DNA from: a virus
Lineage: Duplodnaviria; Heunggongvirae; Uroviricota; Caudoviricetes
Length of the DNA stretch: 22,731 bases
Strand: one strand, 5' to 3'
IMG/VR virus record: IMGVR_UViG_2526164602_000021
In this document: positions 15,001-18,000 of the stretch, in pieces
How the letters are laid out: each line of letters opens with the position of its first letter
Position numbering within the stretch: the stretch's first letter is position 1
Made by a program: the position numbers

Positions 15001-18000
15001 GATGGTCCGGATATGTGTCTGCACCTGACAGAGGTCATCCAGATCATCGTCCCGTCGTACCATATCCCTGGCAGGGTTGAAGGCGTTAGCCGCCACCTCC
15101 ACGGTCGGGGCCAGAATGGTGTAGCCCGCCGCCTGCCGCCAGTTCAGTAACAGCGCCGTCATCATGATCCCCGCAGCCAGCGTGGACTTCGAGTTTTTCT
15201 TGGGGATAAGGATAAACACTTCCTTGATATGGCGAACACCGGTCTGCGCATCGTAGGAGCCAAACAGGGCCGCCACCAGGTCAAACACCCACGGTGCACA
15301 GGACTCCCCGAATGTCGGGCTACCCGGTGCATCCACAATTCGCAGTTGTTTAAAAATCGCCAGTGCATGTGCAGCCTGGTCCGGATAAATCGGAGCCGGA
15401 ATAATCGACAGCCCCTTTTTCAGGCGCTCTGCCCAGTCCGGGCAGGCCGTGCTCCACACAGGTATCATCCGTTGCCCTCATTATCATTATTCACCACCAG
15501 GCGGGGTGGTGGTGGCACCGCAAAACGGTTAGCCGCTTTTTTCGCCGCGTCACCTTTTGCCGATTTTTTACCGGCATCCCCTTTTTTGTGGTGCGTGAAC
15601 TGCGCCAGCTTATAAGCCGCATCCAGCGCCAGCCTGGGGTCGGTATTAATGTTCTCCACCAGAAGACGCCCCATCGCTTTCACCGGATCGGGAAGACCAT
15701 CCTCCATATATTCAATACCAGGAGACATCACCGCGGACGGTGGCATCTCCGGATTGTTTTCGTCCGGCTGTGGTATTGCAGCCGCCTCACGGCGACGGGG
15801 TTTATCCTCCTGCTCTGATTTTTTCTGCCGGTAAACAGGAACCTCATCCACCTCCACCGTCTCGCATTGTTTACGGGCTATAAACGCAAGCACCTCCGGA
15901 TCTTTTGCCAGCTGCGAGCCTTTAACCCTGGCGGTCTTCGCCGAATAACCGGCGGCAATGGCTGACGCTGTTTTGTTTTTCCCGGACATGAGCGCCAGCG
16001 CAAATTTTCGTTTTTGCGTTGTCAGCACAGCCTCCTCCCGGGTCCAGAACGCACTCAGCCGGGTATGGTTCAGCCCATTTTTCCCGGCGTCTCATGCCGC
16101 AAATGTTAACTGCTGCCTGGTTAACATTTGATGAAAAAGCCAGTTAACATTTTTTTCGCACAACAAACTGAATAATAAAGATAAAAACCGCAAAAATGCC
16201 CGGACAGCCAGTTAACATGTTAACTGCCCTGAAACGGGAATTTTTTCTCTGCGTGAGAGGGGGCGCGGTGTCCGGAGCGATCGTTTTTTACGCCGGATGA
16301 TACCCCCCCGCTCGGGTTACAGTCCGATGATGTCGTCCGCTCTGCCACTACCTCCGGACACCTCCGGCAGCGTCGGGTCCGGCATACCACCCGCCGCTTC
16401 ACGAGCAGACTTTTGTCGATGGCATTCGGTACAGAGCGTCCAGAGATTCGTCTCCTCATTACCACCACCGAACTGAAGTGCAATTCGGTGATCGAGTTCA
16501 CTGTCACAGAGGTCAACCACACGACCACAGAGACAGCACTGCCCGGCATCCCTGAGCCAGATATGACGCTTGAGGGAAACACGTGCACTGCCACTGACAC
16601 GACGCTGTTCACCCTTCAGAATATTCACCCGTCGGGTATTCAGTGTTTTGATTCTGCTCTGGAGTGTACGAAGCTCAGCCATGTAAAATCCCCGTCATAT
16701 GGCAATCAGTAAAGGAAATAAATATGTCATCGAAAAACCGGACCCGCAGAACCACAACCCGCAATATCCGTTTCCCCAATCACATGATTGAACAGATCAA
16801 TATCGCCCTTGAACATAAAGGTTCCGGTAACTTTTCAGCGTGGGTTATTGAAGCCTGCAGGAGAAGGCTGGCAACAGATGCAACGCATCTGCGTCCGGCC
16901 AGCATGACAAATAACGAGAAATGAACGTTCGGTTACAGGAGCAGGTACCCACTGTCCTCCAACAATATTTCATCTTCATACCCGGCGGAACAAGACTTAC
17001 CCAGCCGGAATGTACAGAATAACAACAGAGTGATAATTAATTTCTGATGAAATAATCAGGGTGCAGAAGGACTAAAGATAAACGTTTTCTTCACGCCTTT
17101 ACGCGGCCTGTCCTTCTCAAATCGCCATTTTGCCATCGCCTTTACAACCTGCTCATCAAACAGATGGTGCGGCTCTGAACGGATAAACTCAATTCGGGTG
17201 ACAGTACCATCAGCACCAATATCAAACTTCACATCAACCCGTCCCTTTATATAATTTGCCGCTGCATAGGCCGGATATTGTGGTAATGCCTTAACCAACT
17301 GTCGGGGCATATCTGTTTTATGTTGCGTACAGCCCATAACCAGAGAAGACAACAAAATAATTAACGGAAGATTTCTTTTCATTTTCATTCCCGGCACAGA
17401 TAAGAATAAGTCTTATTCTAACAATGCCACCCTGTCGGCCATCAATCCTCTGCTTAATGGCAACGACAATTATCCGACTTAAATCACAAATCAGACACAT
17501 GACATAACAGGTCTTGCGAGGTAACACATCGTCCGGTTTCTTCCACCATCGCACCGAACCAGCGACCATGAGGGGACAACGCCGCGCTCCGTTAACGCGG
17601 TAAACCCCGGTGCGTATCGTTTTTGATTCTCCCCGCACACTCGCGCAGAGGAGTCTCCCTGTCGGGCTGCGGTCTCTGTTAATGAGGGAATACAGCGACG
17701 ATACGGCGCATCAGCAAAACTTAGTTCAGGCACTGAGTGCGGATATAGTCCTGTGCCCCTTCCAGCTGCTTCTGCATTGTCATCAACCGTTCTCTGAGGA
17801 TGAAATAATCCCGTTCAGCGGTGTCTGCCAGTCGGGGGACGGTTGCATTATCCACGCCGGAGGTGCCGGTGGCTTCACGCACGGTACCGGAGCAGGTGGC
17901 GTTGATCCGCAGGCGCTTACGACCAGCGGCAACATCAGCACGCAGAGTTTCATTTTCAGCTCTCGCATCGGCTAATTCCCTCGAGTATTTTGCATCGAGC

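Follow-up and report, generated by a model that had tools for sequence, protein, structure and literature searches.

A candidate two-part cos site with a conserved repeat array between the HNH and small-terminase genes of a Pankowvirus-type lambdoid prophage

The DNA analyzed here, referred to below as the window, is the whole stretch of 22,731 nucleotides in IMG/VR virus record IMGVR_UViG_2526164602_000021 (Caudoviricetes), and the element under study is a 288-nt gap at 16029-16316 in which a preliminary description had placed a putative HK97-type cohesive-end (cos) packaging site. As that description had it, the gap lies between an HNH endonuclease gene and the small terminase gene (terS). 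The flanking packaging genes are all on the minus strand. The HNH gene (16682..16317; 121 amino acids), located directly 5′ of the gap, matched Pfam HNH (PF01844, E = 7.5e-7), and terS (16028..15465; 187 amino acids, GTG start) matched Terminase_2 (PF03592, E = 1.5e-8), both above the curated cut-off. The large terminase (TerL) gene follows at 15468..13807 on the same strand and encodes 553 amino acids with Pfam TerL_ATPase and TerL_nuclease domains. The genes are ordered HNH, terS, TerL, protease-capsid fusion and portal, and the order of HNH and terS was the same in all phage relatives compared. The GTG at 16028 was favored as the terS start by the alignment with all relatives (MLTTQKRKF...) and by the Shine-Dalgarno sequence GGGAGGAGG at 16039..16031 (minus strand). 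In some records, for example MT225100 (185-793), terS is annotated 15 codons longer (202 amino acids, with a CTG start at window 16073).

The proteins flanking the gap were compared with those of characterized packaging systems. By BLASTP, TerL shared 23% identity with HK97 gp2 over approximately 490 amino acids (E = 5e-11), and sequence comparison indicates that it is homologous to gp2 across its whole length. The small terminase protein (TerS) showed no similarity to HK97 gp1 by BLASTP (E = 1.2), and by Pfam it belongs to Terminase_2, not Nu1. In the AlphaFold model, TerS residues 1-55 formed four helices with a predicted local distance difference test score (pLDDT) > 90, and the best Foldseek matches of this N-domain were the SF6 small-terminase DNA-binding domain structures 4zc3 and 2cmp (TM 0.84 and 0.81, root-mean-square deviation 1.6 and 2.5 Å, respectively; probability 1.00). 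As modeled, TerS is an SF6/SPP1-type protein with an N-terminal helix-turn-helix DNA-binding domain, not a member of the HK97 gp1 family. The module thus pairs cutting enzymes of the HK97 kind with a DNA-recognition subunit of the SF6/SPP1 type.

The region is 95-99% identical to approximately 90 GenBank records of Shiga toxin (Stx)-converting and related lambdoid phages, including BP-4795 and the Pankowvirus phages 2851, 1717, and YYZ-2008. The virion ends were placed in the window by alignment to one relative, Lys8385Vzw (MT225100), which serves as a proxy only. This Stx1 phage was induced and its virion DNA was sequenced, and PhageTerm analysis assigned it to the cos type with 3′ cohesive ends, its cos sequence being CGCCCCCCCT at the genome end (PMC7946995). 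In the searchable literature, this is the only paper found to report ends for the phage family, and it gives only the 10-nt cos sequence, with no account of repeats, G-run, or TerS recognition. The MT225100 record ends in ...GGACACCGCCCCCCCT (at greater length, ...CGATCGCTCCGGACACCGCCCCCCCT) and begins with CTCACGCAGAGAAAAAATTCCCG... (at greater length, CTCACGCAGAGAAAAAATTCCCGTTTCAGGGCAGTTAACATGTTAAC...), and the window minus strand reads ...GGACACCGCGCCCCCT|CTCACGCAGAGAAAAAATTCCCG... (at greater length, ...CGATCGCTCCGGACACCGCGCCCCCT CTCACGCAGAGAAAAAATTCCCGTTTCAGGGCAGTTAACATGTTAAC...). The Lys8385Vzw site is near-identical to that of the window, the overhang differing by one base (CGCCCCCCCT versus CGCGCCCCCT). 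The first and last bases of MT225100 align to window 16257 and 16258, respectively, which puts the top-strand cut at 16258|16257. The preliminary description had noted a GC-rich block at 16254-16283 as a possible home of the nicking site and had proposed an alignment with the cos regions of related phages as a check; the block is present, the aligned cut falls inside it, and the mapped ends of the near-identical site support a cos site in this gap. We therefore regard it as very likely that the gap is a cos site and that the cut lies at 16258|16257 or only a few bases away. The overhang also differs by single bases between Escherichia coli genome copies (again CGCGCCCCCT versus CGCCCCCCCT, for example), and such differences could affect the end-joining of co-packaged relatives.

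Around this cut, several minus-strand elements were delineated, with +1 set at 16257. The predicted 10-nt 3′ overhang, CGCGCCCCCT, occupies 16267..16258, where it aligns to CGCCCCCCCT of Lys8385Vzw, and belongs to a conserved core, GGACACCGCGCCCCCT (16258..16273), that ends at the top-strand cut and is retained in loci of four classes. The virion left end starts with CTCACGCAGAGAAAAAATTCCC (16236..16257; +1..+22), which is identical to the first bases of MT225100 and contains an A6 tract at +12..+17. Upstream, a G7 run (GGGGGGG) at 16303..16309 (-52..-46) forms a further element of the cos core, its last G lying at -46 from the cut. This G-run is found ungapped and at a constant distance in every relative class, while the approximately 30 nt between it and the cut vary, and its role may be cosQ-like or one of positioning the nuclease. 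In single-stranded form, the G-run and the C-run showed unremarkable pairing (z = -0.78). The segment 16236..16257 is probably read by TerL/HNH rather than by a class-specific TerS, because it is nearly the same in loci with differing TerS N-domains and repeats.

The octamer GTTAACAT occurs five times in the window, all within 16103-16224, compared with 0.38 copies expected from dinucleotide-preserving shuffles, in which five copies were reached in 0 of 100 cases; the cluster is thus non-random. The copies are located at 16103-16110 (minus), 16120-16127 (plus), 16143-16150 (plus), 16211-16218 (plus), and 16217-16224 (minus). Four of them extend to the 10-mer CAGTTAACAT, and the remaining one reads TGGTTAACAT. 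All five units, at +34..+155, lie inside the virion left end between the cut and the terS start (+230), in a leader of 229 nt, and no copy of GTTAACAT was present upstream of the cut. Nearest the cut, the overlapping sequences CAGTTAACA/TGTTAACTG form a perfect 18-bp palindrome, CAGTTAACATGTTAACTG (16209..16226), which amounts to two overlapping CAGTTAACAT units with the first GTTAAC at +34..+39. An A/T-rich spacer (16151..16208, minus strand) with T5, T5, and A7 tracts, largely conserved among variants, separates this pair from three distal units with invariant cores, namely repeat 3 (16141..16150, plus, CAGTTAACAT), repeat 4 (16118..16127, plus, TGGTTAACAT), and repeat 5 (16103..16112, minus, CAGTTAACAT). 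Repeats 4 and 5 belong to the two arms of an inverted pair, CAAATGTTAAC / GTTAACATTTG, that was identified with a repeat finder (11-nt arms at 16100-16110 and 16120-16130, separated by 9 nt). The preliminary description had thus been accurate in reporting five copies in both orientations, an inverted pair (16100-16130), a palindromic overlapping pair (16209-16226), and A/T-rich DNA between copies. The spacer may act as a bend or a flexible linker; the IHF consensus WATCAANNNNTTR had no match in 16029-16316 at one mismatch or fewer. Intrinsic terminators were absent from the gap. Restriction-site avoidance was also considered and rejected, since GTTAAC occurs seven more times elsewhere in the window and hence is not avoided.

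The conservation of the array was then quantified among 56 unique long-leader variants, with variation counted from +24 to the terS start. None of the 38 repeat positions was variable, compared with 43 of the 168 other leader positions (Fisher p = 8.5e-5), and the bases touching the repeat cores (16225, 16142, and 16118) do vary. Exactly five GTTAAC motifs were present in 49 of 49 unique long leaders, including the most divergent ones (L127 and L232). The 290-bp segment, which carries no annotated feature, was found in 1278 of the 5426 complete E. coli genomes considered, at most 7 times in any one of them. No description of GTTAACATGTTAAC, of the repeats, of the G-run, or of the modular pattern described below was found in the searchable literature.

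Approximately 300 related loci were gathered by a protein-profile scan of one genome per species, two IMG/VR pattern scans with the conserved core, look-ups of two divergent TerS proteins, and GenBank records. All of them share a core consisting of a G-run (last G at -46), approximately 30 variable bases, GGACACCGCsCCCCnT, the cut, and CTCAyknnAGAAAAAA. Downstream of this core, four leader types were distinguished. Type A, that of the window, has a leader of 229 nt with five GTTAAC units. Type A′, found in Salmonella phage FSL SP-016 and in prophages of approximately 20 enterobacterial genera, has a 39-nt leader with one imperfect palindrome (GTwAAC-ATGTTAAC), the second half of which is the terS start codon followed by Leu-Thr. 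Type B comprises satellite-like islands of E. coli, whose leaders of 73 or 207 nt carry AAAGTTACAC repeats; the short leader holds two direct copies, and the long one has at least four, oriented both ways and accompanied by an A/T-rich spacer. Type C comprises full phages with HNH, TerS, TerL, and protease genes, and its leader of 72-73 nt contains three direct copies of AAAGTTAAA. Measured from the cut, the first repeat of all four leader types begins at +33/+34.

The repeat type was perfectly associated with the recognition-helix region of the adjacent TerS over 82 unique core-sharing leaders. KGSQL or QGSRL occurred only with GTTAAC, KGWQL with GTTACAC, and AGARL or QGSKL with AGTTAAA. The identities of the two domains were informative. 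The type A′ TerS resembles that of the window closely in the N-domain (71-80% identity) but much less in the C-domain (34-47%), and it has the same motif. For the type B TerS, identity to that of the window is 59-68% over the C-domain and lower, at 53-61%, over the N-domain, and the motif is a different one. Since the core is constant while the repeats follow the adjacent TerS N-domain, the repeats are probably TerS elements and the core is probably read by the nucleases; this is our strongest argument, and it is correlational. Neither HNH nor TerL was found in the type B islands in the stretch examined, and their private repeats are therefore unlikely to be sites for a helper HNH or TerL. In type A′, the early terS codons that overlap the motif are nearly fixed (Leu2 is TTA in 39/39 and Thr3 is ACA in 39/40), while Arg7, Ala10, and Gly16 use four codons each. 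Codons 6, 12, 13, and 15 are invariant as well, which makes this synonymous-codon bias no more than suggestive as a sign of motif constraint.

Taken together, we consider it likely that the gap is a two-part cos site of a Pankowvirus-type (2851 / 1717 / BP-4795-like) lambdoid prophage with a TerS-bound array. The first part, the cut-site core, would run from the G7 run (-52..-46) via GGACACCGCGCCCCCT to CTCACGCAGAGAAAAAATTCCC (+1..+22). Within it, the HK97-like TerL, aided by the adjacent HNH protein, would make staggered nicks that leave the 10-nt 3′ overhang CGCGCCCCCT (16267-16258), with the virion left end beginning at 16257. The second part would be a cosB-like recognition array of five CAGTTAACAT units between the cut and terS, in which the palindromic pair is fixed at +34 and is followed by the A/T-rich spacer of approximately 60 bp and three more units. 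The helix-turn-helix N-domains of a ring-forming SF6-type TerS would bind the repeat units, and this binding would mark the DNA as the phage's own and place the terminase at the core, first at initiation and again upon arrival of the next cos at the motor. Together with the modeled SF6-type helix-turn-helix of the TerS N-domain, these comparisons make it probable that the GTTAACAT units in particular are small-terminase recognition sites. The analysis shows that the repeats are real and conserved, where the ends lie in a close relative, and that the repeat sequence co-varies with the TerS N-domain; from this we infer that TerS physically binds the repeats, where exactly the window prophage is nicked, and what the G-run and the spacer do.

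We weighed four other explanations, which even jointly appear unlikely. One of them accepts the cos site but takes the GTTAACAT copies as inert relics of a ~190-bp insertion or duplication that copied the ancestral start (ATG-TTA-AC), after which the real start moved downstream. Several features are in keeping with this idea. In 21 species-level relatives, terS starts with ATGTTAAC 39 nt past the cut; the window start now reads GTG CTG ACA, and the old Shine-Dalgarno sequence GGAGGG has decayed to CAGGGC; and the 13-16 nt of identity flanking the copies is what duplications would leave. Relics should decay, yet the core positions are all unvaried while adjoining bases vary, the divergent long leaders L232 and L127 retain five cores despite altered flanks, and the analogous arrays of the other classes (AAAGTTACAC and AAAGTTAAA) contain no start codon, so that we give this explanation little weight. 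We consider it equally improbable that the repeats are operators or sites for a protein other than TerS, such as a transcription factor of the phage or its host, a nucleoid protein, or HNH, which might for example control the terminase operon. GTTAAC is palindromic, and the units are arranged in palindromic and inverted pairs, as dimeric regulators prefer; in addition, two units supply a sigma-70-like match (TTAACA-18-TAACAT) on the plus strand. This promoter-like match, the only one in the gap, is nevertheless directed away from terS and is formed by the motif units themselves, and lambdoid phages transcribe their late genes by read-through from pR′. Moreover, the islands, in which no HNH was seen in the stretch examined, still carry a repeat type of their own, the type of repeat follows the N-domain of the adjacent TerS, and the IHF search noted above was negative.

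Two explanations remain. HK97 TerS binds a single 15-bp site at +15..+29, starting 15 bp past the cut and beside an A-tract that is read by shape (PMC11331095), and by analogy the window TerS might read the A-tract segment at +8..+22, with the GTTAACAT array being accessory, for instance through bending or a host factor. The almost invariant AGAAAAAATTCCC at +9..+21 in the window's family is compatible with this possibility. We nonetheless find it quite improbable, since the window TerS is unrelated in sequence to HK97 gp1, and the segment is constant across classes with differing TerS N-domains, whereas the repeats change with those domains; such constancy suggests that the segment is read by the conserved TerL/HNH or through DNA shape, not by the variable domain. 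Least plausible of all is that the inverted repeats act as RNA hairpins in the late-mRNA leader and adjust terS translation or the stability of the mRNA. In the fold predicted for the 229-nt leader, the palindrome and the inverted pair do form hairpins, but the energy is unremarkable (z = -0.53, equaled or bettered by 56 of 200 shuffles), no Rfam family was matched at E <= 1, and the direct-repeat arrays of other classes (AAAGTTAAA ×3 and AAAGTTACAC ×2) cannot form such hairpins.

Several observations weigh against a cos site with a TerS-bound array, the explanation that we prefer. Only one relative has had its ends mapped, by software from sequencing reads, and these are not the ends of the window prophage. 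Given the single 15-bp site of HK97 at +15..+29, what TerS really binds could be the conserved A6 tract at +12..+17. The repeat centers are spaced at 8, 68, 23, and 15 bp, with no obvious helical phasing, and conservation is high in the T-tract spacer as well. Because the 56 variants are closely related, the conservation test covers few independent events. The co-variation of repeats and TerS rests on three or four lineages that differ in much else, and another lineage-specific factor is possible. In the short leaders, the motif coincides with the terS start codon, and its invariance there could be translational.

The long leader itself probably arose by duplication around the ancestral terS start, as judged from the flanking identity of the copies. 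The window palindrome occupies the position at which terS starts in type A′, and the real start lies 190 nt further. This duplication history accounts for the origin of the array, not for its cores staying intact. A hydrophobic open reading frame (ORF) of 24 codons, MLTGCPGIFAVFIFIIQFVVRKKC (window 16144-16218, minus strand), begins at the palindrome's relic start codon and is closed by the TAA of the next repeat. The mini-ORFs at each ATGTTAAC (24, 9, and 11 codons, each stopping at the TAA of the following unit) have no Shine-Dalgarno sequence by eye and are probably untranslated.

Compared with known systems, the layout of the site is closest to that of lambda cos (cosQ-cosN-cosB, with R3/R2/R1 for gpNu1). 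In both, a nick site is followed by short elements in both orientations, a spacer, and terS; the G-run, like cosQ, is a conserved element upstream of the nick, and the array holds the same place relative to the cut as cosB does relative to cosN and the Nu1 gene. Lambda differs in having a 5′ 12-nt overhang, whereas that of the window is a 3′ 10-nt overhang (by proxy from Lys8385Vzw), and in having a Nu1 TerS, whereas the window has an SF6 / Terminase_2-type TerS with an adjacent HNH gene. In lambda, an IHF site lies between the repeats, whereas the window spacer has no IHF consensus, and the window has five repeats including a perfect palindrome.

The comparison with HK97 (gp1 / gp2 / gp74) gave the complementary picture. 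HK97 makes 10-nt 3′ overhangs, and cos cleavage is stimulated by its HNH protein gp74 (PMC9410871, PMC11331095). As in the window, its cos lies between the HNH and terS genes, its TerL is homologous, its overhang, like the one predicted for the window, is a 10-nt 3′ one, and C/G-rich sequence is found at the cut, with an A-tract shortly past it. A G9 run in HK97 ends 43 nt before the right terminus (NC_002167 39682-39690; L087 483-491), and the last bases of HK97, GACCGCCGCCAAA, faintly resemble GGACACCGCGCCCCCT. A G-run approximately 45 nt 5′ of the cut is possibly a cosQ-like element shared by HK97-type cos sites, although it is a feature seen here in HK97 and not an established criterion. 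HK97 differs in its gp1-type TerS, its one site at +15..+29, and a terS start at +50, compared with the five candidate sites from +34 and the 229-nt leader of the window. Hence the label HK97-type used in the preliminary description holds for TerL, HNH, the G-run, and the 3′ overhang, and fails for the TerS family and the multi-repeat layout.

The pac sites of SPP1 and SF6 (G1P) share the N-terminal DNA-binding fold of TerS with the window. In SPP1 pacL/pacR, several short repeated boxes in A/T-tract-rich DNA are recognized. SPP1 and SF6 nevertheless package by headful, with permuted, terminally redundant ends and boxes flanking the cut, whereas the relative of the window phage has defined ends and the repeats lie on one side only. 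The site fits no single family, because each of the lambda, HK97, and SPP1 types has defining features that it lacks; its layout is lambda-like, its enzymes and ends are HK97-like, and its recognition domain is SF6/SPP1-like. On the present comparisons, it is best filed as a putative cos site with a candidate TerS-binding repeat array, a general kind that is already known. The cut site has been published for Lys8385Vzw, and a cosB logic like that of lambda on HK97-like cutting machinery would involve no new principle.

A broader reading, which we put forward tentatively, is that the site is modular, with a universal HK97-like core read by TerL/HNH and an exchangeable AGTTAnn label, and that the E. 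coli islands exploit this arrangement. The label may be read by the N-terminal helix-turn-helix of TerS, in which the changes between KGSQL, KGWQL, and AGARL may re-code GTTAAC, GTTACAC, and GTTAAA. The islands may keep the core of a helper and a helper-compatible TerS C-domain while using a private N-domain and private repeats. The type B islands were represented by L211-L213 (terS 2001-2489) and by L214 and L215 (terS 2001-2474 and 1227-1700). They encode AlpA, a D5-type primase, a 307-amino acid capsid-family protein, and their own Terminase_2 TerS, and they adjoin an AIDA-type autotransporter gene. E. coli phage-inducible chromosomal islands that encode TerS and whose helper is not known have been mentioned (PMC6092414), and Pankowvirus-type prophages are candidate helpers. 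If the modular reading is true, the islands would recruit the packaging motor of Stx-type prophages for their own DNA; this strategy would be the cos-type counterpart of the TerS strategy of pac-type Staphylococcus aureus pathogenicity islands (SaPIs), and it may bear on the spread of Stx phages.

The segment belongs to a prophage family that carries many stx1, stx2a, and stx2c genes. Its relatives form a natural domain-swap series that gives a testable recognition code and points to satellites possibly hijacking Stx-type phage packaging. Such a code could be used to predict which co-resident prophages and satellites each terminase can package and to design cos plasmids or packaging-defective lysogens, and it offers a test case for a simple protein-DNA specificity code.

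Other records were considered as sources of physical ends. Pseudomonas vB_Pae_CF121c is a partial genome with an arbitrary start at terS, and Xanthomonas CP1 has a different gene order; both were uninformative. Salmonella FSL SP-016, the only cultured short-leader phage record, is a partial genome without mapped ends. In L317 (LC567822.1, PPompW prophage), an ISEc20 element (IS110 family, 1146-2604) ends exactly in the G-run of the cos core (junction 2600-2609), leaving only GGGGG. The region between Q/tRNA and cos, including the lysis genes and HNH, is gone from this defective prophage, whose cos core is truncated, and the same ISEc20/cos arrangement recurs in several PPompW records.

Further observations concern the genes around the packaging module of the window. 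A 645-amino acid protease-capsid fusion (Peptidase_S78 and Phage_capsid) is encoded between TerL and portal, an unusual order for an HK97-like head module; the fusion and portal genes lie at 11806-13743 and 10230-11594, respectively, on the minus strand. A gene for a DUF3950 protein (16664-16924, plus strand) is divergent and starts just upstream of HNH, and the lysis cassette (Rz 17721-18287) is separated from the packaging genes by a gene for a TonB_C-domain protein (17056-17397, minus strand). The DUF3950 and TonB_C genes are both kept in Lys8385Vzw.

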